Below are positions 1-14,396 of a DNA stretch of 25,775 nucleotides, in pieces (within the stretch, counting starts at the first letter, position 1; each line of letters begins with the position of its first letter). The notes beneath the pieces were generated by a model that made no database searches, was not told the DNA's origin, and worked only from the letters and a program-made list of their open reading frames with translations. Location of the stretch: assembly GCA_020722705.1 (NCBI GenBank), contig DYKI01000026.1:9220-34994 (forward strand), written 5' to 3'. The translations under genes and the position numbers were made by a program. This DNA comes from Chthonomonas calidirosea. GTDB taxonomy: Bacteria; Armatimonadota; Chthonomonadetes; Chthonomonadales; CAJBBX01.

Positions 1-119
1 TGACGGCGAGGACGCCGTCCCTCCCGCTGACGGCGAGGACGCCGTCCCTCCCGCTGACGGCGAGGACGCCGTCCCTCCCGCATGACGGCGAGGACGCCGT
101 CCCTCCCGCATGACGGGCG
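1..119. repeat. Tandem array of a 27-28 bp palindromic unit TGACGGCGAGGACGCCGTCCCTCCCGC(A): four complete head-to-tail copies (1-27, 28-54, 55-82, 83-110) plus a degenerate fifth start (111-119). The array is cut by the window edge and may continue upstream.
   Basis: Seen directly. Units abut with no spacers. Each unit contains the hairpin GACGGCG/AGGA/CGCCGTC followed by CCTCCC. The same core recurs at 2675-2699, 3363-3387, 9858-9882 and inverted at 9997-10020. Confidence 0.9.
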
Positions 120-123
120 TACG

Positions 124-150
124 GCTCTTCGGAACACTCCCGAAGGGCCG
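124..150 (+). promoter_or_regulatory. Stable hairpin: 10-bp stem GGCTCTTCGG / CCGAAGGGCC with one G-U pair, 7-nt loop AACACTC. Lies just 3' of the tandem array; function unknown. A possible -10 TAGAAT at 223-228 precedes the kinase gene.
   Basis: Seen directly: the arms are complementary. No U-tract follows, so not a classic intrinsic terminator. Confidence 0.3.
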
Positions 151-270
151 GGCGTCATATCATGCGCGTCCTGCAGGCCCTCCGAAACCGTCCGATCAGC
201 GCGGCGCGCCGTCGCAAGCGGGTAGAATAATCTGTCGCGACGCGAGTCTGTAACAGCGCGGTAACATTGC

Positions 271-1452
271 GTGTCACTTACCACCGAAACCTACGGCTAT
301 ATTGCGGCCGGCCTGTATTGGGTTCTCATCCTTTGCTGGCTGACGATCCTCACCTTCTACTGGCGTGAACATCGCCGCCTGCGCTCGCTTGAGACGATCG
401 TCGGCACGATGCTTGTCGTGGTCTTCCTCGACGGCGCGCGTACGCTGCTGGAGAGCGTCTATTTCGGCACCGTATACACCGCGCGAGCGGGGATACTTCC
501 CGCGTACGTCTACGAACTGCTTTCCGAGCCTCAGCTTGTCCTCGTCCCCAAGACCGTCAATCTGGCCGCAGCCGTCACGATCATCATGGTGCTTGTGCGG
601 CAGTGGTTCCCGGCCATGCGCGAGGAGTTGGACCGGCAACGGCAGACAGCAGCTCTGTATGAGGAACTCCAGCATGCCCATGAGAAGATGCAGACCACAC
701 TCGATGAGCTGACGGCCGCTCACGACGAACTGAAACGAACCCACGAGGAGCTCCGAGCCGCTCGTGAGGCACAGGACGCGCTGACCCACATGATCGTGCA
801 CGACATGCGCACGCCCTTGACGAGCATCATCACGGGACTGCAGACGGCGCAGCAGGCAGACTATGACAGCGAGCTGACCCCTGAGATGGTGGATCATGCG
901 CTGGCCGGCGCCAATCGGCTGCTGCTGATGGTCAACGACCTCCTCGACATCTCGAAAATGGAGTCGGGAATGATGACCCTGACTCCGGAGGTGTTCTCGA
1001 TCAGACAGCCCATCGAGGTGGCGGTCACGCTTGTCGGGCCCCTGGCTCGCGACAAGGACATCACGCTGGAGACAGCCTTTGTCGAGAACGACGAGGTACA
1101 GGCGGATCGCGAACTGGTGCGCCGCATTATTGTTAACCTGTTGGGCAACGCGCTCAAGTTCGCGCCCAGGGGCAGCGCGATCCGCATCGCCGTGTCGCGT
1201 GTCGGTCGAGCTTCGCTGCGGGTGAGCGTGTCCGACAGCGGTCCAGGGATACCGCCGGAGCACCAGCAACGCATCTTCGACAAGTTCCATCAGGTCGCGA
1301 ACGGCGGCACGAATGGCATACCGTCAACCGGCCTCGGGTTGACGTTCTGCAAAATGGCGGTCGAGGTTCAGGGCGGCGAGATCGGGGTCCAGAGCGTGCC
1401 CGGAGAGGGCAGCACTTTCCATTTCACCCTGCCCGCGGCCGTGACCAACTGA
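271..1452 (+). CDS. Membrane sensor histidine kinase with 3 predicted N-terminal TM helices, a coiled coil, HisKA and HATPase_c. No response regulator adjacent (orphan). GTG start at 271.
   Basis: H-box HDMRTPLTSI, N-box NLLGNALKF, D/G-box SDSGPGIP, G2 STGLGLTFCK. Hydrophobic N-terminal segments YGYIAAGLYWVLILCWLTILTFYW and VNLAAAVTIIMVLV. Confidence 0.85.
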   Translation: MSLTTETYGYIAAGLYWVLILCWLTILTFYWREHRRLRSLETIVGTMLVVVFLDGARTLLESVYFGTVYTARAGILPAYVYELLSEPQLVLVPKTVNLAAAVTIIMVLVRQWFPAMREELDRQRQTAALYEELQHAHEKMQTTLDELTAAHDELKRTHEELRAAREAQDALTHMIVHDMRTPLTSIITGLQTAQQADYDSELTPEMVDHALAGANRLLLMVNDLLDISKMESGMMTLTPEVFSIRQPIEVAVTLVGPLARDKDITLETAFVENDEVQADRELVRRIIVNLLGNALKFAPRGSAIRIAVSRVGRASLRVSVSDSGPGIPPEHQQRIFDKFHQVANGGTNGIPSTGLGLTFCKMAVEVQGGEIGVQSVPGEGSTFHFTLPAAVTN

Positions 1453-1468
1453 ACCTTGCCCGAGCCCG

Positions 1469-1999
1469 TCAGGGCGACGGATGCTCGTCGGGTCTGGACC
1501 GCTCCATGGACCAACTGTCGTTGCGACGACGGAATGTGGCCTGCCCCGTGATGACGAAGCCCATGCTTCGGTAGAGGCGCTCGGCTCGCGCGTTGGTCTT
1601 GACGACATTCAGCGACACCACGGGCACCTTGAGACGGTCGGTCTCGTGCAGCAGCAACTGCATCAGTCGTCGACCGTGACCCTGGCCGATCACGGAATCG
1701 TGGAGGCCGATCCCGAGCATGGGGCGTGAACATCCGATGCCCTGGACAAACGCGTGGCCCAGTATCCGTCGGCCCCGCCCGAAAAGCCCCAGACTGATGC
1801 AGAGCCCCGAGCGGACCATGTCGAAGTGCTCTCGAATGGCGTCGGGCGAGACGTAGTCGGTGGGCAGGAACATGCGCGCTACGGGCGGGGACAAGGAGCG
1901 GTAGAACGCCAGCAGCTCCGGCGCGTCGTCAGGCGCCAGACGGCATATGCTCAGGTCTGTTTCAGGCAGCAATGCTTGTACTTGCGTCCGCTGCCGCAC
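1469..1999 (-). CDS. GNAT family N-acetyltransferase. Start uncertain: GTG at 1999 would overlap the anSME 3' end by 49 nt.
   Basis: Acetyl-CoA binding motif A (QGIGCSRPMLGIGLHDSVIGQGHGRRLMQLL). Size about 170 aa. No in-frame ATG before residue 42. Confidence 0.7.
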   Translation of the reverse strand: MRQRTQVQALLPETDLSICRLAPDDAPELLAFYRSLSPPVARMFLPTDYVSPDAIREHFDMVRSGLCISLGLFGRGRRILGHAFVQGIGCSRPMLGIGLHDSVIGQGHGRRLMQLLLHETDRLKVPVVSLNVVKTNARAERLYRSMGFVITGQATFRRRNDSWSMERSRPDEHPSP

Positions 2000-3357
2000 G
2001 GGCAGGGGGCATTGCGGCCAACGGCCCGATTGGCAACGGGTATCGGGGATGCGCCGCCGCGGCGATCGGCCATGGCGTACATCCCCATGATCTCGGCTGG
2101 AGCGCGCTGAGCCTCCAGCAGTTGTGTCATCAGCCGCATATCTCTGTCAATGTGGTTGAAGAAGCGCTTGTACGACGGGCACAGGTAGTTGAGCCCGGGC
2201 TCACCATCGGGGGTCCGGCAGAAACGGTGCTTCGGGCACTCGCCGCGACAGGCAAAGAGAACCTCGCATGAACGGCAGTGGGCGGGCAGGCTGTCGCGCT
2301 TGGCATCGCCGAATGCGGTCTGCTTGGGTGAGATCACCATTGTGCGGATGTTCTGCTCCATGATGTTGCCGAGCCGGTGCTCCGGATACACGTAGTGATC
2401 GCATGCGTACAGGTCGCCGTTGTGTTCGAGAGCCATGCCGCGCCCGCACGTTTCGGCGAAGACACAGAGGGAGGCGCCGGCTCCGGCCCATATGCCCAAC
2501 GCTGTGTCGAATATCTGCACGAACACGCGCGCTACATCGTTGCGGACCCACTCGTCGTAAATCGCGCACAGGAAGATGCCAAACTGCTCGGCCTCCACGC
2601 TCCAGTCGGTGACCCTTGGGGCGGCCAGGTCGTCATCCACATCGGGAGGGCCTGCGAGCACATGCCCGGGTTTCGGACGGCGAGGACGCCGTCCCTCCCC
2701 ATCGGGAGGGTCACTGTCCTCGGTGACCGGTTTTGCGGACGGCGGCAGCCGTTCAACCAGTGGGATGAACTGGAGGAAGCGCGATCCGGCCTCCTTGAGG
2801 AACCGGTAGACCTCGAGCGGATGGTGGGCGTTGAGGCGGTTGACAACGGTCAGCGTGTTGAACTCGACGCGGTGCTTCTGCATGAGTTCGAGGCCGCGCA
2901 TGACACGGTCGAAGGATGGCCTGTCGCGCTTGTCGCGGCGATATGCATCATGCAGCTCACGTGGTCCATCCAGGCTCAGGCCGACCAGGAACTCGTGGTC
3001 ATGCAGAAACGAGCACCACTCATCGTCGAGAAGGGTGCCGTTGGTTTGAATCGCGTTGGTGATCCGCTTGCCGCGTGCGTGCTTCCGTTGCAGTTCCACG
3101 ACCTTGCGGAAGAAGCGAACCCCCAACAGCGTGGGCTCGCCCCCCTGCCAGGCGAAGTTGACCTCCGGAACTTCCTGAGCTGCGATATAGTCTCGGATGT
3201 AGCGCTCCAGCACCTCATCCGACATTGCCCATCGCCGATTGCCCGGAAAGAGATCCTCCTTCTGCAGATAGAAGCAGTATCGGCAGTCAAGGTTGCAGAT
3301 CGGCCCGATGGGCTTCGTCATTACATGAAACGCCAGCGGGCTCTTGGGAGCGGTCAT
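1951..3357 (-). CDS. Anaerobic sulfatase-maturating enzyme (radical SAM / SPASM). Carries a 20-aa repeat-derived insertion and a C-terminal SEC-C motif extension.
   Basis: CNLDCRYCFY (CxxxCxxC radical-SAM cluster), GGEPTL, multiple C-terminal Cys clusters (CRSCEVLFACRGECPKH, CPSY) typical of SPASM. C-terminal NAPCPCGSGRKYKHCC is the SEC-C metal-binding motif. ATGA overlap with the upstream sulfatase stop at 3354-3357. Confidence 0.85.
   Translation of the reverse strand: MTAPKSPLAFHVMTKPIGPICNLDCRYCFYLQKEDLFPGNRRWAMSDEVLERYIRDYIAAQEVPEVNFAWQGGEPTLLGVRFFRKVVELQRKHARGKRITNAIQTNGTLLDDEWCSFLHDHEFLVGLSLDGPRELHDAYRRDKRDRPSFDRVMRGLELMQKHRVEFNTLTVVNRLNAHHPLEVYRFLKEAGSRFLQFIPLVERLPPSAKPVTEDSDPPDGEGRRPRRPKPGHVLAGPPDVDDDLAAPRVTDWSVEAEQFGIFLCAIYDEWVRNDVARVFVQIFDTALGIWAGAGASLCVFAETCGRGMALEHNGDLYACDHYVYPEHRLGNIMEQNIRTMVISPKQTAFGDAKRDSLPAHCRSCEVLFACRGECPKHRFCRTPDGEPGLNYLCPSYKRFFNHIDRDMRLMTQLLEAQRAPAEIMGMYAMADRRGGASPIPVANRAVGRNAPCPCGSGRKYKHCCLKQT
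2644..2700. mobile_element. MITE/RPE-like insertion of the palindromic element inside the anSME ORF. Net 60 bp (in frame), flanked by a 10-bp direct repeat ATCGGGAGGG (2641-2650 and 2701-2710). Imperfect terminal inverted repeat GGGAGGGCC ... GTCCCTCCC.
   Basis: Seen directly. The core GGACGGCGAGGACGCCGTCCCTCCC sits at 2675-2699. The protein shows a duplicated PPD flanking the 20 inserted residues GEGRRPRRPKPGHVLAGPPD. Confidence 0.6.
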
Positions 3358-4715
3358 TTTCTGGACGGCGAGGACGCCGTCCCTCCCGTCGCTCTAACGG
3401 GGAACTCCGAGCTTTCGGTCCTTGCATCGCGGAGGAACGCCGCCATCCGATCGGCCACGTCCGGGTGTCGGTCGGCGATGTTGTCGCGCTCGCCCGGATC
3501 GTTGTTCAGGGCGTAGAGCTCCAGACTGGTCTGCCCTGCACGCCGGACGGCCTTCCACGATCCCATCCGGGCTGCCTGGCTGAATCCGCCTTCGTGGAAC
3601 TCCCAGTACAACGGCGGTCTGTACAGCAGCTTTCGCCCGAGCATGGCCGGCAGGACGGACACGCCGTCGGTGTTCGCCGGCACGGGCTTGTTGAGGAGTT
3701 CGCAGACGGTGGGCAGGAAATCCCAGAATGCCCACGGTTCATTGCTGACGCTGCCTGACTTGATCCGGTCGGGCCAGCGCACGATCATCGGAACCCTGAT
3801 GCCGCCCTCGTAGAGATCGCGCTTGATGCCGCGCAGCGGGCCGCTGCTGTCGAAGAAGGCGGGGTTGTGGCCGCCTTCCCTGTGCGGCCCATTGTCGCTG
3901 GTGAAGAAGACTATCGTGTTGCGCGTCAAGCCAAGCGCATCGAGCCGCTGGAGGATCGTGCCGATGCCCCGATCCATCCGGGTGATCGCTGACGCGAAGA
4001 GCTTCTCCGTCTCGGGCCAGTCGGCGTCCCTGTACTCGGGCTCGATGCGCGGAGCCTCCATCGTTCGGGCTGTGCTGTTGGCGTGCGGGGCGGTGTAGGC
4101 CAAATAGAGGAAGAAGGGCCGATCGGCGCTCCGCTCGACGAAACTCAGGGCCTCACGCGTGAACAGATCGTTGGAGTAAGCGCCTCGACGGTTCTGATCG
4201 TTCTCGTAGATGGCTTCGACAGAATCGTTGCGCCAGAGCTGTGTGGGAAAGCTGTTGTGCGCGAGCGCCTGATTCAGGTATCCGAAGAAGAAGTCGAAGC
4301 CTTGTCGGTTTGGAATGCCTGTGGTTGCCGGTTCGCCGAGCCCCCACTTGCCGACGAGAGCAGTGGCGTAACCGGCGGATCGGAATATGCCTGCAACCGA
4401 GTTCTCGCCTGGGCGCAGAGGAACGAGCGCGTTTCCGCGCACGAATGCATGCCCGGAATGCAGACCAGTCATCAAACAGCACCGGGATGGTGCGCAGACC
4501 GTGCTGCCCGCATAGCATTGGGTGAAGCGCAGGCCGCGCGTGGCCAATCTGTCAATGTTGGGCGTTTTGATCCTGGTCTGCCCGTAGCATCCCAGGTCGC
4601 CGTAGCCAAGATCGTCGGCGAGGATGAAAACGACATTGGGCGGACGGCTCGGCGGTTCGCCTGTCGTTGAAACGTGTATCGGCGTGGCGGCAAGCATGGT
4701 CGCGATAGGCAGCAT
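3354..4715 (-). CDS. Cys-type sulfatase of the arylsulfatase / N-acetylglucosamine-6-sulfatase family, probably secreted. Likely ATG start at 4715 with an upstream GGGAG; the track's 4751 start is GTG.
   Basis: Sulfatase signature CAPSRCCLMTG (C-x-P-x-R), N-terminal FILADDLGYGDLGCYG, GKWGLG. Hydrophobic N-terminus MLPIATMLAATPIHV. The stop overlaps the anSME start (ATGA). Confidence 0.85.
   Translation of the reverse strand: MLPIATMLAATPIHVSTTGEPPSRPPNVVFILADDLGYGDLGCYGQTRIKTPNIDRLATRGLRFTQCYAGSTVCAPSRCCLMTGLHSGHAFVRGNALVPLRPGENSVAGIFRSAGYATALVGKWGLGEPATTGIPNRQGFDFFFGYLNQALAHNSFPTQLWRNDSVEAIYENDQNRRGAYSNDLFTREALSFVERSADRPFFLYLAYTAPHANSTARTMEAPRIEPEYRDADWPETEKLFASAITRMDRGIGTILQRLDALGLTRNTIVFFTSDNGPHREGGHNPAFFDSSGPLRGIKRDLYEGGIRVPMIVRWPDRIKSGSVSNEPWAFWDFLPTVCELLNKPVPANTDGVSVLPAMLGRKLLYRPPLYWEFHEGGFSQAARMGSWKAVRRAGQTSLELYALNNDPGERDNIADRHPDVADRMAAFLRDARTESSEFPVRATGGTASSPSRK
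3363..3387. repeat. Solo copy of the palindromic element, lying inside the last 9 codons of the sulfatase and immediately 5' (on the mRNA) of the anSME start codon.
   Basis: Exact 25/25 match to the core GGACGGCGAGGACGCCGTCCCTCCC. Its minus-strand translation gives the sulfatase C-terminus ...TGGTASSPSRK*. Confidence 0.85.
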
Positions 4716-4806
4716 GGCGGCTCCCGTGCAATCGGTGGCGGTTGCGCGCACCTCTGCCGAAGCATCCGCGCGGGCCTGCAGTGCGACGGCGTCGGCGACA
4801 CGTGCG

Positions 4807-4835
4807 TATTATAGCCCGTAACCGTATGCTACAAT
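4807..4835 (+). promoter_or_regulatory. AT-rich patch (TATTATAG ... TACAAT) in the divergent intergenic region between the sulfatase and DUF951 genes. Candidate -10 elements.
   Basis: TACAAT at 4830-4835 lies 31 nt upstream of the DUF951 ATG. AT islands are unusual in this GC-rich sequence. Confidence 0.25.
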
Positions 4836-4865
4836 CCGTGGTTCTCTTGGTGTGGACACGCGTCT

Positions 4866-5081
4866 ATGAGCATGGTGCATATCCAAATCGGTGACCGTGT
4901 CCGGTTGCGCAAGGCACACGCGTGCGGCGGGGATGAGTGGATCGTCCACCGGACGGGTGCCGACGTCGGTCTGACATGCGCAACGTGCGGCAGACGGGTC
5001 ATGCTGGACCGCGAGGTGTTCGAGCGGCGCGTCCGGCCCAACCGTCCGTCGGCGGCGACAACGCCGCGGGAGGAGTCTTGA
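4866..5081 (+). CDS. DUF951 family small protein (zinc-ribbon-like).
   Basis: IQIGDRVRLRKAHACGGDEWIVHRTGADVGLTCATCGRRVMLDREVFERRV matches the DUF951 pattern (hxCGxxxW ... GADxxxxCxxCxRxVM...R..FE) as I recall it. 71 aa. Confidence 0.65.
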   Translation: MSMVHIQIGDRVRLRKAHACGGDEWIVHRTGADVGLTCATCGRRVMLDREVFERRVRPNRPSAATTPREES

Positions 5082-5116
5082 GGGTACACCGCAACTTGCG
5101 AGTGGGCGTAGCCGAG

Positions 5117-6301
5117 ATGGCGTCCGCTCTCGTACTCGCGCTCGCCCTGAGCGCGTTTGTCAGGCAACTGAGCACACCCGAGCCGGAAGACGGCAGCACG
5201 GCTCAGGCGGTGCAGCCTATCGAGGCGCAGGTCACCGCTATTCATACCACGGCTTCGAGCATTCCCGACGGTGATGCGGTCGGCGATCTTGGATTGCCCC
5301 CTCAGGACGACGGAGTTCCGCAATGGTCTGGGTGGGCCAACCTGGACACCAAACGAGTTACCGCCCGGAGCACGCACGAAGCGGTTCGAGCCGTCGCATC
5401 CCGCATTCCGGACGGCCTGGCGATCGGCATCGGCAACACCGCCGAAGCGCCTGCTCTGCTCCGCTTGGAGGTGCGGCTGCCGGCAGGCAGATACACCATT
5501 GATCGTCTGGTGTACGGTCCTGGCCACGTGCACCTTGAGAGGCTGCAGTCTTCGGCGCCTGATGGCGGAGGTTTCATACGTAAGCCCGGCTATCTCGCGC
5601 CGAAATCCGGCGCGGTATACCGGTTCGTGAACCATGCTTCACGCGCGTCAGCGACCTACATGCGCGCCGCACAGCAGGCCCGTGCCTATGCATCCGTGAG
5701 CTCAAGGAACAGCGCCCGCCTGATGGCAGCCCTTCGGGAGTGTCCATGGATGCTGACCCAGGCGGCAAGACTGATCGCGCGCAAGAACCCCGGGGAGGCA
5801 CTGCGGCCGATCCACCGTGCGCTTCTGGGCATACGGCATGCGCAAGCGGTGTGCGGCAACATGACCGCCCCGGGTGAGGCCGCTGCCCGTCTGCGGAGCA
5901 GGATCGCGACGGAACTGGATGCCCTCGAAGCATCGCTGGGTGAATGCAGCGTTGCCGCGCTTGGTCTCGTACCGTCTGCAGATGTAGAGGCAGGCGAAGG
6001 TCGGACCCGCATCCGCCTGGGTGTCCGGAACTCGGGATCGCAGAGCATCTCAGCGGTCAAGCTCTGGCTGACAGGACCCCGCGGCTGTGTTGTCGAACCT
6101 TCATTGCAGGCGGTCTTCGACACGCTGCGGCCCGGACAGACGGTGACCGCCGAGTTCACGGCGAAGACGCCCGGAGCATCTGCGGACACTCAGGCATCGG
6201 CGAGGCGCGCGCCGGGTGATCGAACCGATGGTGATTTGTGCGGCCACCTGTCATACTTCCGCGATCAGGCGCCGGCGCACGTCCGCATCGCAGTTCGGTG
6301 A
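5117..6301 (+). CDS. Hypothetical secreted protein with a C-terminal beta-sandwich resembling NEW3/CARDB-like domains. The track ORF starts at 4937, but that overlaps the DUF951 gene; ATG 5117 gives a signal-peptide-like N-terminus MASALVLALALSAFV.
   Basis: Hydrophobic N-terminus. C-terminal TRIRLGVRNSGSQSISAVKLWLTGPRGCVVEPS...LRPGQTVTAEFTAKTP has the NEW3-like pattern. No other motif recognised. Confidence 0.5.
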   Translation: MASALVLALALSAFVRQLSTPEPEDGSTAQAVQPIEAQVTAIHTTASSIPDGDAVGDLGLPPQDDGVPQWSGWANLDTKRVTARSTHEAVRAVASRIPDGLAIGIGNTAEAPALLRLEVRLPAGRYTIDRLVYGPGHVHLERLQSSAPDGGGFIRKPGYLAPKSGAVYRFVNHASRASATYMRAAQQARAYASVSSRNSARLMAALRECPWMLTQAARLIARKNPGEALRPIHRALLGIRHAQAVCGNMTAPGEAAARLRSRIATELDALEASLGECSVAALGLVPSADVEAGEGRTRIRLGVRNSGSQSISAVKLWLTGPRGCVVEPSLQAVFDTLRPGQTVTAEFTAKTPGASADTQASARRAPGDRTDGDLCGHLSYFRDQAPAHVRIAVR

Positions 6302-6353
6302 CGTACAGACCGCTTCAGCCTCGATCACTTGCTCATGATAGGAGATGCACTGC

Positions 6354-7979
6354 ATGACTGACATAGCGCGCGCTTGCCGGTGGATGGTCACGTTCGCAGC
6401 TTTGTTTGCGCTCGTACGCAGCGCTCATGGAGCTGAGGTAACGCTCAGTGTGGCCGATGGCGAGCGCCTCGCCGATCGGGTCACCATCACGGCGCGGGTC
6501 ACCGGCTTCGAGGAAACCGGGGTTCGGCAAGTGGCATTCAGTGTTGACGGTGTCGAGCGTGGCACCGACAGCAGCATCCCCTATACCCTCGATTGGGATA
6601 CTGTGAACGAGTCCGACGGCCGGCACCGGCTGGCTGCCGTTGCTACCGATATGGGCGGCGCTGCGGCACGAACCGAAGTGACCGTCGTCGTGGACAACGA
6701 ACTGAGCAAGGGCGCCGAGCATCATGGGCGCATCGCACTCGAGGCGCTCAAGGCGGGCGACCTACCGCGTGCCACTCGCCATGCCCGTCGCGCCGTCAAG
6801 GTGGACCCAACCAACCTCAGCGCCGCACGCGCCCTGGCTTCCATCCATCGGCTGGCTAAGGAGTATGACAAGGCGATCGGGGTACTGGAGCAGGCACAGA
6901 TACCTGAAGACAACGTCCCCGTTCGGACCGAGCTGGCGGCCCTCTACGTCCTTCGCGGTGATGCCGGCGAGACGATGGAGGCCCTCGTCATGGGCGCCAA
7001 CACCGGTCTGGAGCAGCATCGAAAGGCTCTGTTGGCCAGTCGGGACGCCTTGAAGTCGGATGCGCCGCCCGAGCAGCGGGGCGATGCGGCCTTTGCACTG
7101 CGAGATTGGGCCGGGGCCATACGGGCTTACCAGATGGCGGGCGATGCCTCCACGGCATCATTGGGCTCTGTCAATCGGCTGATGGTGGCCTACGCCAGAG
7201 CGGGCCGGAGACGCGATCTCGATGTGCTTCTGCGTACCTTGAAGCGCGAGGAGCGTGGTGACGACATCACCAGGGCGGCACACGCGTACTGCCTCCTGGC
7301 GTCGCACAAGCCGAATGAGGCGCGAGCGCTGATCGAGCAGGGCGTCCAGAATCGTGTGTATCCGTCGCTCTATCTTGCGGCCTGTGCTGACCTCATCATC
7401 GGCAACAAGAAGGTGGCGGGCGAGGAGATCACGGCACTGGCCGAGATGCGGCCCGGCTCTCCCGAAGTGCTGCTCCTGCAGTCTCTGGTTGCCAAGGAAC
7501 CCCTCGATGTTCGAGCCCACATCGTCGGCGCGATGGCCCTCATGCCGTCGTGGCCCGAGGCGTATGTGCGGATGGCCGGCGACCTTATCGGAAGCAACAG
7601 GCCAAAGCGCATGGAAGATGCCGAGACCATGCTCGGTATCGCTCGGAAAGCCGACCGGGACGCTCCCGATGCCCTGATGGTGACAGCCGCCCTCCTGATG
7701 GTTCAGCGTCGGCCAGAGGAGGCGCAGCCCATCCTTGCACGTGTGTTGGAACTCGATCCGGAGGCCCCGGACGCTCTCGTAGGCATGGCCCTGAACTGCA
7801 GCATGCTGGATAGGACACGCGAGATCACCGACCTGCTGGCCAGGGCCATGAAGGTCAGTGACGTGCTGTGGAACGATGTCTTCGTGCCCAAGCCGCTCGA
7901 CTTTCTGAGGCGGGTGCTGCAGTATCGCATACCGATCCTGATGACGCCGGACGTCCTGTATCCGACCGGCACGAGGTAG
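6354..7979 (+). CDS. Secreted protein with an N-terminal bacterial Ig-like domain followed by TPR repeats. ATG at 6354 is preferred over 6345 on AGGAG spacing.
   Basis: Signal peptide MTDIARACRWMVTFAALFALVRSAHGA. Ig-like segment ...VAFSVDGVERGTDSSIPYTLDWDTVNESDGRHRLAAVATDMGG...VVVDN. Helical repeat region with TPR-like A/L/Y periodicity. Confidence 0.7.
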   Translation: MTDIARACRWMVTFAALFALVRSAHGAEVTLSVADGERLADRVTITARVTGFEETGVRQVAFSVDGVERGTDSSIPYTLDWDTVNESDGRHRLAAVATDMGGAAARTEVTVVVDNELSKGAEHHGRIALEALKAGDLPRATRHARRAVKVDPTNLSAARALASIHRLAKEYDKAIGVLEQAQIPEDNVPVRTELAALYVLRGDAGETMEALVMGANTGLEQHRKALLASRDALKSDAPPEQRGDAAFALRDWAGAIRAYQMAGDASTASLGSVNRLMVAYARAGRRRDLDVLLRTLKREERGDDITRAAHAYCLLASHKPNEARALIEQGVQNRVYPSLYLAACADLIIGNKKVAGEEITALAEMRPGSPEVLLLQSLVAKEPLDVRAHIVGAMALMPSWPEAYVRMAGDLIGSNRPKRMEDAETMLGIARKADRDAPDALMVTAALLMVQRRPEEAQPILARVLELDPEAPDALVGMALNCSMLDRTREITDLLARAMKVSDVLWNDVFVPKPLDFLRRVLQYRIPILMTPDVLYPTGTR

Positions 7980-7987
7980 GGCCCGAG

Positions 7988-8884
7988 ATGAGCCGGGCCG
8001 GGCCACCCCGTGTCGTCTGCATCGGAGAGGTGCTCTGGGATGTCTTTGGCGGTGTTCGTCGGCTCGGGGGAGCGCCGTTCAATGTCGCTTGCCATCTCCG
8101 GGCGATGGGGCTCGATGCCTCCATGGTCAGCCGGGTTGGAGACGATGCTCTTGGCGCCACGATCCTTGAAGAGGCCCGAACGCGGGGACTGCCCGTAGAG
8201 CTTGTTCAGATTGATCACAGACTTCCGACTGGTCAAGTCGTGGTTACGCTGGATAGAGCGGGCATTCCGGGCTATGTCATCTGCGAACCCGCGGCGTGGG
8301 ACGCCATCCGGGCAACGCCGGCATCGGTGGAGGTTTCGAGATCGGCGGATGTCGTCGTGTTCGGGAGTCTGGCCCAGCGCCGGGAGCCGTCGCGCTCTTC
8401 GATCCGCACGATGCTGCGAACGGCCGCACTCAAGGTGTTCGATGTCAACTTGCGGCCGCCACACGATGACCGTATCGCGGTCGAGCACCTGCTGCACCTC
8501 AGCAACATGGTGAAGCTCAACGACGACGAGATACGGCGTCTGGCCGCATGGTACGGCTTCCGAGGCGCCGGTCTGGCCGATTGGAGCGCTGACATGGCTC
8601 GGCGGTACGGTCTGGCAACCGTCTGCGTCACGTCCGGTGCGGAGGGTGCGTCGCTCTGGCATCGCGGGGCCTGGGTGCAATCCCGGGGGCATCACATCAC
8701 CGTGGCCGATACGGTCGGTGCGGGCGATGCTTTCCTCGCCGCCTTGCTTGCGAAGCTGTTGACAGGTGCGCCCGCTGCCGAAGCGCTTGAGTGGGCCAAT
8801 GCGGCCGGCGCCTATGTTGCATCCCAGGAGGGGGCGATTCCGAACATGGATGCGGGGGCGGTGGAAGCCTTGATGGCGTCATGA
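7988..8884 (+). CDS. PfkB family carbohydrate kinase (fructokinase / ribokinase-like).
   Basis: N-terminal VVCIGEVLWDVFGG...GGAPFNVA and C-terminal DTVGAGDAF anion-hole motif. The in-frame upstream extension in the track (from 7868) overlaps the TPR gene and lacks homology. Confidence 0.8.
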   Translation: MSRAGPPRVVCIGEVLWDVFGGVRRLGGAPFNVACHLRAMGLDASMVSRVGDDALGATILEEARTRGLPVELVQIDHRLPTGQVVVTLDRAGIPGYVICEPAAWDAIRATPASVEVSRSADVVVFGSLAQRREPSRSSIRTMLRTAALKVFDVNLRPPHDDRIAVEHLLHLSNMVKLNDDEIRRLAAWYGFRGAGLADWSADMARRYGLATVCVTSGAEGASLWHRGAWVQSRGHHITVADTVGAGDAFLAALLAKLLTGAPAAEALEWANAAGAYVASQEGAIPNMDAGAVEALMAS

Positions 8885-8924
8885 CGCACATCGCCGCGGC
8901 GCGCATCCGATACGTACATCAGCC

Positions 8925-9812
8925 ATGATCGTCTGGATATGCACCGATATGGAGGGGTTGGCCGGCATCTCGTCCTGGGACCAGTGTTATGATCCTGACG
9001 ACGACTCGCCCGTATACGCCTTCGGCAGGGAGCAGCTCACCGCCGATGCCAATGCGGCCATCGCCGGATGTTTCGATGCCGGAGCCACCGAGGTCCGCAT
9101 TCTTGACGGCCACGGGCGCAACCAGAACCACGGTTTTATGCTGGATCGCCTGGATGCGCGAGCCAGGCGGGTGTGGATCGCCCAGCGCAATCCGCTCCGA
9201 TGGGAGGGACTGGACGCCGACGTCAGCGCTCTGGCCATCATCGGCCAGCATGCGCGGGCCGGCACGATCGGCGCCTTCCTCGACCATACCCAATCGGCCA
9301 AGGTGATCTGCCGCTACCGGATCAATGGCTGTGAGCATGGCGAGATCGGGCAGATGGCCCTGTATGCCGGGGCGTATGGCGTTCCTCTGGTCTACGTCTC
9401 TGGCGACGAGGCCGCCTGTACCGAATCACGGTCCCTCTACCCGGGAGTGATCACGACGCCCACAAAGCGCGGCCTTGCGTGGGATCGGTGCGAGCTGTAT
9501 GAGCCCGACCTGGTCCGGTCCCATATCCGGCGCGACATCGCCGAGGCCCTTCGCAGAGTGGAAGGCGCCGGCTCGCCTGAAACGATGTCCCCCGAACGCG
9601 AGCGGGGCGGTGAGCGCGGTGCGGGCCCCCGTCCGTGGCGGCCTCCTATGCCTGTGGAGGTCTGTGTCGAATGGGCCTGGACGGGCGCCGCCGACGGCAT
9701 GGCCGGGGTGCCGGGCGTTCGGCGGCATGGAGCCCGAACGGTATCGTGGTGTCTCTCCGATCCGCGGGACGTATTCTGTTGGCCGTCTGATTCCTGGCAT
9801 CCGAAGGTCTGA
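8925..9812 (+). CDS. Peptidase M55 D-aminopeptidase (DppA-like), with a low-complexity insert (SPERERGGERGAGPRPWRPP) near the C-terminus.
   Basis: N-terminus MIVWICTDMEGLAGISSWDQ matches the M55 DppA N-terminus (MKIyISaDmEG). C-terminal PVEVCVEWAW...GVRRHGARTVSW resembles the DppA tail. Confidence 0.7.
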   Translation: MIVWICTDMEGLAGISSWDQCYDPDDDSPVYAFGREQLTADANAAIAGCFDAGATEVRILDGHGRNQNHGFMLDRLDARARRVWIAQRNPLRWEGLDADVSALAIIGQHARAGTIGAFLDHTQSAKVICRYRINGCEHGEIGQMALYAGAYGVPLVYVSGDEAACTESRSLYPGVITTPTKRGLAWDRCELYEPDLVRSHIRRDIAEALRRVEGAGSPETMSPERERGGERGAGPRPWRPPMPVEVCVEWAWTGAADGMAGVPGVRRHGARTVSWCLSDPRDVFCWPSDSWHPKV

Positions 9813-9857
9813 GCTGCCTGCCGCCGGCAAAGGAGAGGATCGGCCATCATTGATGCC

Positions 9858-10020
9858 GGACGGCGGGGACGCCGTCCCTCCCACATTCGAAGGAGAAAGG
9901 GGCAGGACTGCAGCGTCGTGTGCCCGAATGTATCCCCATGACGCGGGTACCATCCTGCGAAATGTGGGGCATTGGGGACGATGACCCACCCGATCCGGGA
10001 GGGACGGTGTCCCCGCCGTC
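9858..10020. mobile_element. Composite MITE-like element. 25-bp terminal inverted repeats (left GGACGGCGGGGACGCCGTCCCTCCC at 9858-9882; right GGGAGGGACGGTGTCCCCGCCGTC at 9997-10020) are variants of the palindromic core. They enclose a 114-bp structured core with internal inverted repeats ACATTCG/CGAATGT and CCCCA/TGGGG.
   Basis: Seen directly. Sits in the DppA-to-isomerase intergenic region, 37 nt upstream of the isomerase GTG start. Confidence 0.7.
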
Positions 10021-10056
10021 GTCTGCGGATGCGCAGATCATGATCTGGAGGCATAG

Positions 10057-13139: not shown

Positions 13140-14396
13140 ATGCGGGGGACATTGATCGGCGCGATAGCGCTGTGTGTGCTGGGAACCGGGAGTCTTGCCG
13201 ACTGGCCGCGGTTCCGAGGGCCGTTGGGCAATGGGTACGTTCCGAAAGGCGTGGCGGTTCCCAAGTCGCTGCCGGCGGAGCCCGGCGTGCTGTGGCAGCG
13301 TGAGGTGGGCTTCGGCATCGGGGCGCCGGTTGTTGCCGGGCAGACGACGTATTTCCTCGACAACCGCGAAGGCAAGGAGGTTGCGGTTGCTGCCTCGCTC
13401 AAGGATGGGCGCGACATTTGGGCGGTGCCGCTGGACGAACTCCTGGGAGACAGCGGCTCGCCTCCGGGACCTCGCGGGACGCCGACGGTGGATGGCGACC
13501 GCGTCTATGTTCTTTCGTGCCGCGGGGAGTTTCGGTGTCTGAACGCTCGGGACGGACGGCAAGTCTGGAGAACGCACTTCGTCAGAGACTTCGGGGCAAT
13601 GCCGGTGCAGGAGATCGGCGACACTCCTGGAGCGGCCCGGCATGGCAACACGGCCACTCCGCTGATCGAGGGGAACCGCATGTACGTAGCCGTAGGCGGT
13701 CGGCATGGTGCCGGCGTGGTGTGCTTCAACAAAATCACGGGGGCAGTGATCTGGAAGTCGCAGGACGACATCCCGGGCCATGCCGGACCGGTATCGGCCA
13801 CGATCTGCGGCGTTCGGCAACTCGTATGCTACATGGCCGAGGCCGTGATCGGCCTGTCCCCGGCCGACGGCAAGCTCCTGTGGCGCGTAGGCATCAAGAC
13901 GCTGTATGGTCGGCATGTGACGACGCCGATCGTCATCGGTGATACGGTCGTTGTCGGCTCCTATACGTACGGGTTGGCCGGCATCCGCGTCACTCGCGGC
14001 CCCAACGGAATCGTCGCCGAAGAGGCCTGGCGCGACCGATCTCTTCCCGTTGACTTCTCCGACATGGTTGCCATCGGCAATCACGTCTGCGGCCTTGGCC
14101 CGGGAGGGCGGCTTTTCTTCGTCGAAGCGGCCACCGGCAAGCGGACGTGGGTAGAGGAGCGCTTCTTCCAGGGCATGCTGGACACCGGCTTCGCTTCATT
14201 CCTTGTGGCGGGAAAGAACCTTCTCATTCTGGCGGAGCGCGGGCAGTTGCTGCTCGCCACACCCTCCATGACCGGATGCAAGGTTGTCGGTCGGTCCACG
14301 GTGTGCGGACGCAACTGGTGCAATCCGGCCTATGTTGACGGGAAGCTGATCGTGCGGGACAACAAGTCGCTCAAATGTGTCCGGATCGTGCCTTGA
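13140..14396 (+). CDS. Secreted PQQ-like beta-propeller repeat protein (BamB/PQQ-repeat family). ATG at 13140 gives a signal peptide.
   Basis: MRGTLIGAIALCVLGTGSLADWPRFRGPLGNG is the classic propeller start after a signal peptide. Recurrent ...G.VY..S.DG.L.AL.A.TGK..W motifs. Confidence 0.75.
   Translation: MRGTLIGAIALCVLGTGSLADWPRFRGPLGNGYVPKGVAVPKSLPAEPGVLWQREVGFGIGAPVVAGQTTYFLDNREGKEVAVAASLKDGRDIWAVPLDELLGDSGSPPGPRGTPTVDGDRVYVLSCRGEFRCLNARDGRQVWRTHFVRDFGAMPVQEIGDTPGAARHGNTATPLIEGNRMYVAVGGRHGAGVVCFNKITGAVIWKSQDDIPGHAGPVSATICGVRQLVCYMAEAVIGLSPADGKLLWRVGIKTLYGRHVTTPIVIGDTVVVGSYTYGLAGIRVTRGPNGIVAEEAWRDRSLPVDFSDMVAIGNHVCGLGPGGRLFFVEAATGKRTWVEERFFQGMLDTGFASFLVAGKNLLILAERGQLLLATPSMTGCKVVGRSTVCGRNWCNPAYVDGKLIVRDNKSLKCVRIVP

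Follow-up and report, generated by a model that had tools for sequence, protein, structure and literature searches.

GGAGG-tagged hairpin repeats in an Armatimonadota genome as probable REP/REPIN-type elements of a RayT clade

The closest described relatives of the repeats reported here are the repetitive extragenic palindromic (REP) sequences of Proteobacteria, with their bacterial interspersed mosaic elements (BIMEs), REP doublets forming hairpins (REPINs) and REP-associated tyrosine transposases (RAYT, or RayT). REP-RAYT systems have so far been studied almost wholly in Proteobacteria with GTAG-type tags. Passages of PMC6006769 describe REPs as species-specific, and note that they have inserted into flexible linkers and into RayT genes themselves; extracts of the REPIN literature describe REPIN-RAYT systems as mostly vertically inherited. 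In-frame intragenic copies are known for GTAG- and CGTC-tagged REPs, where they were recognised against shorter homologues, and some Rickettsia palindromic elements (RPEs) are themselves CGTC-tagged REPs (PMC3733652). Here we analyse a 25,775-nt stretch of DNA (the window) from an Armatimonadota genome labelled Chthonomonas calidirosea (GenBank assembly GCA_020722705.1, contig DYKI01000026.1, positions 9,220 to 34,994), which carries copies of a 24-nt hairpin unit followed by the tag CCTCC, or preceded by GGAGG on the opposite strand. These repeats are very probably REP/REPIN-type elements of a RayT clade, tagged GGAGG. Their organisation is that of a proteobacterial REPtron, with singletons, head-to-tail arrays, and head-to-head and tail-to-tail heterodimers. 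REPs of this kind are already known, and the new aspect is the GGAGG tag in place of GT[AG]G.

Hairpin units of the window and their empty sites in relatives

A search for the core of the repeat (GACGGCGAGGACGCCGTCCCTCCC) with up to three mismatches gave eight matches in the window, all at the positions listed in an earlier note on this DNA, and none in 100 dinucleotide-preserving shuffles. A wider variant scan added the copies at 2704-2727 and 9968-9991, bringing the total to ten, all in the first 10 kb (Table 1). Beyond 10.1 kb a generic scan for a hairpin followed by CCTCC returned no convincing copy (3 weak matches against about 2.4 expected by chance), and the whole window had no Rfam match at gathering thresholds. 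A full-text literature search found the core or its halves in no searchable paper, in line with the earlier statement that the sequence is undescribed.

The unit can be written as G-GACGGCG-AGGA-CGCCGTC-C-CTCCC, an 8-bp G+C-rich stem capped by a 4-nt loop and followed by a single-stranded tail; the opposite strand reads GGAGG first, then the hairpin. The stem was tested on sequences picked by loop and tail alone (RGGA-N7-CCTCC) across all DNA collected for the analysis. Among 178 such occurrences, the 7-mers flanking the loop formed 7/7 Watson-Crick pairs in 98 and 6/7 in a further 10; in these paired sets 25 different stems are represented. When 29 distinct units were compared, 95.3% of the cells were paired and both sides changed in six of the eight pairs, a result matched by none of 500 shuffles. 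The loop RGGA, the tail CCTCC and a G-N-C at the stem foot are constant, and the stems vary, with only about four positions doing so freely. The hairpin is selected as a structure. These units have no conserved GT[AG]G tetranucleotide on the 5' side of the hairpin foot; the tag is GGAGG (CCTCC) throughout. C.A or A.C on the hairpin-CCTCC strand accounts for seven of the ten single stem mismatches; these correspond to G.T wobbles on the GGAGG-first strand, and none is of the opposite kind. By this asymmetry the tag would precede the hairpin on the 5' side of the folded strand, as passages of PMC6006769 likewise describe for the E. coli GTAG tag, and it is weak evidence that the folded strand is 5'-GGAGG-hairpin. 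In the window, a T.G wobble is present in the unit at 9997-10020, on its GGGAGG-first strand.

The window copies show several arrangements. Position 1 falls within a head-to-tail array with a period of 27/27/28 nt (4.2 copies at 98% match in Tandem Repeats Finder). L039, a public contig from the same population with 99.88% identity to the window, also ends inside this array (13240-13376), with at least 4.6 units and a spacer order that differs from that of the window. The copy at 2675-2699, earlier taken to be solo, forms a tail-to-tail dimer with the variant unit at 2704-2727; as DNA, the region 2670-2732 folds into three hairpins (-19.5 to -20.9 kcal/mol, z = -3.6 to -4.4), and the unit at 2676-2699 reads EGRRPRRP on the maturase strand. 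The unit at 3364-3387 lies 6 nt upstream of the maturase ATG (3357-3355), and its hairpin as DNA has a folding energy of -11.3 kcal/mol (z = -3.3). In the third group, the 9859 and 9997 copies are 114 nt apart, the 9968-9991 and 9997-10020 units are tail-to-tail, and the region 9850-10030 as DNA folds into a long hairpin (-54.1 kcal/mol, z = -5.6).

Gene order is the same in two syntenic relatives, L040 (maturase 83% identical to that of the window) and L041 (82%), and in both the element is absent from all four orthologous sites. In the maturase gene the insertion falls in the variable linker that joins the radical-SAM domain to the SPASM domain. This was seen in an alignment with 14 homologues, in which the linker is 14-16 residues longer in the window protein only, and in a DNA alignment with L040 and L041; with a maturase identity of no more than about 83% to the nearest relatives, the insertion boundaries are uncertain. 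In the sulfatase gene a 30-nt, 10-codon in-frame insertion lies just before the stop codon, which overlaps the maturase ATG, and the protein is 453 aa long in the window versus 443 aa in L040 and L041. Between the M55 peptidase and TIM-barrel genes the window has 244 nt of intergenic DNA versus 94 nt in L040, and the tandem array upstream of the histidine kinase was not found in L040 or L041. The comparison of orthologues thus confirms what the earlier note had proposed, namely that copies lie within coding sequence, of the maturase (2676-2727) and of the sulfatase (3364-3387), and that they were inserted in frame. Two copies survive in genes because the unit, as read from its sequence, has no stop codon in any of the six frames and because the inserted lengths (30 and about 42-48 nt) are multiples of three. 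Judging from single insertions of 27-30 nt and tandem units of 27 nt, the 24-nt hairpin unit itself is what is inserted.

No direct repeat abuts any insertion examined, so that no target-site duplication was found. A 10-bp direct repeat in the maturase gene (ATCGGGAGGG, at 2641-2650 and 2701-2710) was rejected as a target duplication: one copy is part of the insertion, and native codons (HVLAG) separate the insertion from the second copy, which codes for the conserved maturase GPPD. The native maturase site holds CCTCC, which might hint at a preference for tag-like targets.

Several further observations were made around the tandem array. A CRISPR or type III antitoxin array was considered for it and ruled out, since the units abut without spacers of that sort and the neighbouring gene encodes a histidine kinase. 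The array may extend, in frame, the C-terminus encoded by an upstream gene off the contig, because frame 2 of positions 1-116 reads (DGEDAVPPA)x3, followed by a TGA at 83-85 that coincides with the first bases of the fourth unit, and because in relatives the end of an S41 peptidase gene coincides with the array position. The native sequence after the array (TGACGGGCG, 111-119) is similar to the start of the unit. Downstream of the array, a conserved hairpin at 111-160 (CGGCTCTTCGGAACACTCCCGAAGGGCCG region), common to L040 and L041, probably either terminates the upstream peptidase gene or belongs to the leader of the kinase gene.

Table 1. Repeat units of the window, the maturase insertion and the two host genes
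Feature	Position	Strand	Remarks
Tandem REP array	1..110	+	Units at 2-25, 29-52, 56-79 and 84-107, all exact; spacers GCT or GCAT
REP unit GACGGCG-AGGA-CGCCGTC-CCTCCC	2676..2699	+	Exact; within the sulfatase maturase gene
Variant REP unit, other stem	2704..2727	-	GGGAGG-GTCACTG-TCCT-CGGTGAC on + strand
REP unit	3364..3387	+	Exact; in the last codons of the sulfatase gene; reads GGTASSPS
REP unit, GGGA loop	9859..9882	+	1 mismatch to the core; intergenic, between M55 peptidase and TIM-barrel genes
Decayed variant REP unit	9968..9991	+	GGCATTG-GGGA-CGATGAC-CCACCC; read from sequence
REP unit, opposite orientation	9997..10020	-	GGGAGG-GACGGTG-TCCC-CGCCGTC on + strand; 2 mismatches
In-frame maturase insertion DPPDGEGRRPRRPKPG	2665..2712	-	About 42-48 nt, 14-16 codons; boundaries uncertain by a few codons
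Anaerobic sulfatase maturase (Radical_SAM + SPASM + SEC-C)	1951..3357	-	Host of the intragenic dimer 2676-2727
Sulfatase	3354..4751	-	C-terminus 10 codons longer by REP unit

The unit in other genomes and beside RayT genes

An exact-match scan for the 24-mer, with one genome per species, found it in 38 loci of eight other metagenome-assembled genomes (MAGs), so the dispersed REP-like palindromic family suggested earlier is not confined to this locus. The MAGs are labelled Verrucomicrobiota (two), Planctomycetota, Nitrospiraceae, Hydrogenedentota, Gammaproteobacteria, Sumerlaeota and Chloracidobacterium, which makes seven phyla by deposited labels, plus the Armatimonadota window. The taxon labels are used as deposited; one was checked, that of L017, where FabA and FabB on the contig fit the Gammaproteobacteria label. 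One Verrucomicrobiota MAG, STL-VER8, has 18 exact copies over 15 loci. Copies in the other MAGs appear to be mostly extragenic, as a crude coding test suggests. Except for one 330-nt match, the core loci have no other DNA in common at E <= 1e-10, and in each MAG the core is set in that MAG's own longer repeat, lying at one end of it in the Planctomycetota MAG; on these grounds mis-binning is unlikely to be behind the cross-phylum matches. The exact core had no match in viral contigs, and blastn against plasmids gave chance-level matches in G+C-rich genes only, so these searches show no sign of a phage or plasmid vehicle.

Dimers in these MAGs are often inverted with the tags outward. The stem of the second hairpin then differs from that of the core and has compensating changes of its own. 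It is GCCGGCG in STL-VER8; in the Planctomycetota MAG it is GTCAYCG, which is also the partner stem of the window and the stem type of the 9968-9991 unit. The internal compensation of the partner stems indicates selection on each small hairpin, and not on a long arm-to-arm hairpin. Two side observations concern the Planctomycetota MAG (JAKPII). Upstream of core copies (L021 and L027), GTTTCAATGGGCTCCTATTCGCCCGGAAC recurs at a spacing of about 66 nt, in the manner of a CRISPR array. A GGAGG-tagged unit there has classical hairpins with GTAG tags (GTAGGGGCAACCCCCTGTGGTTGCCCC and GTAGGGGCAGGCCCCTGTGCCTGCCCC) beside it, and the genome therefore seems to hold two REP systems.

The link to RayT comes from the Nitrospiraceae MAG (L002), in which a gene fragment that carries GRYVIMPDHVHLF and weakly matches Pfam Y1_Tnp has, on either side, a 148-nt dimer with exact cores. 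Homologues of this fragment, 145-180 aa long, bear the JGI name 'REP element-mobilizing transposase RayT' and match Y1_Tnp. They score 73-102 bits against NCBIfam NF047646 (REP_Tyr_transpos), three of five exceeding the cutoff of 80, and among solved structures E. coli TnpA-REP (4ER8) matches them best (E = 3e-14). The HUH (PDHVHLF), WQ and YVxxNPVR motifs are kept. In the first homologue loci inspected, the gene had hairpin+CCTCC dimers of a related kind on either side. The enzyme associated with the repeats is accordingly a RayT, encoded by a gene flanked by hairpins, and not the autonomous transposase with the same terminal repeats that the earlier note had envisaged. A reading in which the L002 RayT runs on through the downstream dimer (tblastn over 146 aa) was rejected; it crosses a stop codon, and the similarity is weak.

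The family alignment was then used for a metagenome scan, in which the loci of the best 80 of 470 relatives were examined. A hairpin followed by CCTCC lay within 250 nt of the RayT open reading frame (ORF) in 39 of these 80 loci, and on both sides in 30. The density of such hairpins was 4.4/kb near the RayT gene versus 0.44/kb further off, and about 0.09/kb in random sequence modelled on the window. Both tag orientations occurred, with 42 plus and 47 minus upstream of the gene and 40 plus and 32 minus downstream. From locus to locus the stems and loops vary and the tag is constant. The units form heterodimers, including ones with the tags outward, and head-to-tail arrays with periods of 35-48 nt (for example in L059, L103, L106 and L119), similar to the window array. 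The closest REP types (L083, L106 and L078) have a 7-bp stem, an AGGA or GGGA loop and CCTCCC beside RayT, as in the window. In a Kiritimatiellae MAG (L126) the RayT gene itself is split by a hairpin+CCCTCC unit between the HUH and Tyr motifs; a separate tandem repeat with a unit of about 60 nt (GGTTCAAGGGTTCAAACGCGGCTKGCGCCGCTG) lies just upstream of that gene, at 250-390.

Among the 38 core loci, no full-length RayT was found by a regular expression (HUH plus Y..NP), and tblastn recovered the L002 fragment only. RayT genes with the exact core may be recovered so rarely because repeat-flanked genes tend to drop out of short-read MAGs. The 114-nt segment at 9882-9997 was considered as a RayT remnant and rejected, with no tblastn match even at E = 10. 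All ten window copies lie within 10 kb of the contig end. Because both assemblies end in the array and such arrays flank RayT genes, the cognate RayT may lie just beyond window position 1.

The gene products of the first 10 kb are a histidine kinase, a GNAT acetyltransferase, the anaerobic sulfatase maturase, the sulfatase, a tetratricopeptide repeat (TPR) protein, a PfkB kinase, an M55 peptidase and a TIM-barrel protein, and the remainder of the window holds genes of ordinary metabolism. Pfam scans of 20 window ORFs showed no transposase. The window maturase is 100% identical to a protein of GCA_975218785.1, and its nearest named relatives are in Chthonomonadales/Armatimonadota MAGs. At its C-terminus the maturase carries a SEC-C metal-binding motif (CPCGSGRKYKHCC, window 1951-2010) that is kept across homologues and is unusual compared with textbook anaerobic sulfatase maturases. 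In L040, an extra AAA_14/DUF4143 ATPase gene (1422-2621) lies between the lyase-like and TIM-barrel genes and is absent from the window.

Proposed mechanism and rival explanations

We propose a mechanism modelled on E. coli TnpA-REP and IS608. A RayT, that is, an HUH/Y1 tyrosine transposase, encoded elsewhere in the genome would bind the folded hairpin in single-stranded DNA, and the tag at the hairpin foot would serve as its guide or cleavage determinant. The enzyme would cut and rejoin the DNA, so that units, dimers (REPINs) and tandem arrays could be copied to new sites with no target duplication. By this account the lineage of the window would have gained copies at no fewer than four sites within 10 kb, the intragenic ones having presumably landed in a flexible linker and at a C-terminus. 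A RayT gene would then be present in the genome of the window, its product would act on this REP, and the active strand may be the GGAGG-first one.

Several results weigh against this reading. No RayT gene was found within the 25.8-kb window by Pfam scans or tblastn, and the sole RayT flanked by the exact core, that of L002, is truncated and abuts a 100-N scaffold gap. Of the 80 RayT loci, 41 lack a hairpin with CCTCC under the strict scan. The canonical GT[AG]G tag is absent. Single units seemingly inserted alone, whereas in published REPIN work the dimer is the mobile unit (PMC3116915). The wobble asymmetry comprises seven cases only, some possibly of shared ancestry.

A hairpin kept by selection as a host regulatory device, whether terminator, stabiliser of mRNA 3' ends or Shine-Dalgarno/anti-Shine-Dalgarno element, would make sense of the similarity of GGGAGG and CCUCC to those sequences and of the 3364-3387 copy, which sets GGGAGG and a hairpin 6 nt before the maturase ATG; REPs are also known to affect mRNA stability, termination and translation, according to work cited in passages of PMC6006769. 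We regard it as improbable, since the tag is kept in both orientations beside RayT genes, one dimer lies in the middle of a coding region, no T-run follows the hairpin, relatives with the same operon do without the element, and no Rfam family matches. The earlier suggestion that GGGAGG acts as a Shine-Dalgarno motif is therefore not needed: it is the invariant tag of a RayT-associated family, about equally frequent in both orientations beside RayT. Individual copies may still have secondary regulatory effects, and the copy upstream of the maturase start may act locally. That the window and the public contig both end within the tandem array could raise the suspicion of an artefact of assembly or sequencing, for instance an adapter or a chimeric repeat at the ends of contigs. 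We give this practically no credence, because internal copies sit in intact reading frames, two assemblies are 99.88% concordant, variants carry compensatory stem changes, and the unit occurs in eight independent MAGs that have no other common DNA at the threshold given above, save the 330-nt match.

Two explanations by other mobile elements were also weighed. The hairpins could be the subterminal left- and right-end structures of an insertion sequence of IS200/IS605 type, encoding TnpA and perhaps TnpB, or of a miniature derivative. The enzymes belong to the same HUH/Y1 superfamily, with ISDra2 and other IS200/IS605-family TnpA as the next-best structural matches and with weak matches to NF033573 (transpos_IS200), and the longer repeat of the Planctomycetota MAG has the core at one end. 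The end hairpins of such elements, however, share their orientation on one strand, whereas the dimers here are true inverted repeats; the proteins fit REP_Tyr_transpos best, reaching 20-40 bits with the IS200 model against a cutoff of 55; no tnpB adjoins the associated genes; and arrays of units on both sides of a single short gene are a REPtron layout. This origin is in our view very improbable. A classical miniature inverted-repeat transposable element (MITE), as favoured by the earlier note, would have terminal inverted repeats (TIRs) of about 24 or 25 bp recognised by the DDE transposase of a full-length insertion sequence with the same ends, and the solo hairpins would be products of its decay. 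One inverted pair, 9859-9882 and 9997-10020, does bound 114 nt in a region that folds into a long hairpin. The MITE model is hardly credible as an account of the family, because it is the unit itself that was inserted, singly or in tandem, at 27-30 nt; the tags of a pair point inward in the window and outward elsewhere, at spacings of 4-114 nt; the arms of a pair differ, with compensation within each arm and not against the partner; there is no target-site duplication, the 10-bp repeat at 2641/2701 not abutting the insertion; and the genes flanked by units encode RayT and not DDE transposases. We thus retain the reading as REP/REPIN-type elements of a RayT clade.

One property of the 24-mer does not fit a species- or genus-specific, vertically inherited REP sequence. 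Its identity in seven labelled phyla plus Armatimonadota is unexpected because REPs have been described as species-specific and REPIN-RAYT systems as mostly vertical. The scan used the exact 24-mer, which biases what was found. Horizontal transfer of REP-RayT systems between phyla and convergence are both open readings, and convergence is conceivable because the few free stem positions leave a small sequence space. We tentatively suggest, as a speculation to which we give less than even chances, that GGAGG hairpins and the DHVH/YVxxNPVR RayT clade constitute a third large REP super-family beside GTAG and CGTC, widespread in uncultured non-proteobacterial phyla, that the 24-nt unit became shared across phyla through horizontal REP-RayT movement, and that single 24-30 nt units are mobile and remodel proteins in frame.

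Significance and comparison with known systems

A clade that uses GGAGG would be a natural experiment in guide recognition by an HUH/Y1 enzyme, and it widens the host range of REPtrons to Armatimonadota, Verrucomicrobiota, Planctomycetota, Hydrogenedentota and others. The identical unit in several phyla bears on the strict vertical inheritance of REP-RayT systems. There are also practical consequences. Such repeats break metagenomic assemblies, as seen at the contig end here and in the L002 RayT fragment at a scaffold gap, and they add 10-16 residues to annotated enzymes, segments that annotators should treat as repeat-derived and not as functional.

Like RPEs and the Correia elements of Neisseria, the units are small palindromic repeats able to sit in frame in genes. 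RPEs measure about 100-150 bp, and Correia elements, of about 100-150 bp, have TIRs and a TA duplication. The present unit differs from both in its length of 24-30 nt, its GGAGG tag and its RayT association. The subterminal hairpins of IS200/IS605 elements (IS608 and ISDra2) similarly combine a hairpin with a guide tetranucleotide that is read in single-stranded DNA by an HUH/Y1 enzyme, and by analogy they are the likely mechanistic model. Unlike those elements, the repeats described here come with no tnpB, form inverted dimers and arrays, and are associated with a gene that is not repeated together with the units.

With the GTAG and CGTC repeats of Di Nocera et al. 2013 (PMC3733652), the family shares the grammar of tag, stem and loop, the head-to-head, tail-to-tail and head-to-tail dimers with a predominance of heterodimers, the in-frame coding copies, and the occurrence in Planctomycetes and Verrucomicrobia. 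It is set apart from both by its tag, since the listed degeneracies of GTAG (GYAG, GYRG, GTRG, GTMG and GTGG) do not include GGAG, and from CGTC repeats also by the fact that those have no dedicated transposase (PMC3733652), whereas the GGAGG family adjoins RayT genes.

The closest likeness is to the proteobacterial REP/BIME/REPIN and RAYT systems, that is, the E. coli REPtron and the Pseudomonas REPINs, as described in PMC2817692, PMC3116915 and passages of PMC6006769 and in structure 4ER8. In both cases the repeat is a short G+C-rich hairpin with an unpaired conserved tag at its foot; it occurs as singletons, inverted dimers and clusters, with dimers composed of two different stems; it makes no target-site duplication and lies mostly outside genes, as it seems to do here in the other MAGs; and a single short HUH/Y1 gene is flanked by repeats, here in other genomes and not in the window. 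The RayT clade found here, of about 150 aa with DHVH, WQ and YVxxNPVR motifs, matches none of the motif rows compared in the subclass table of PMC6006769. Unlike proteobacterial REPs, the present ones are hosted by uncultured Armatimonadota, Verrucomicrobiota, Planctomycetota and others, are identical over 24 nt across phyla, seem to be inserted as single units on their own, and carry the tag GGAG(G) instead of GT[AG]G.

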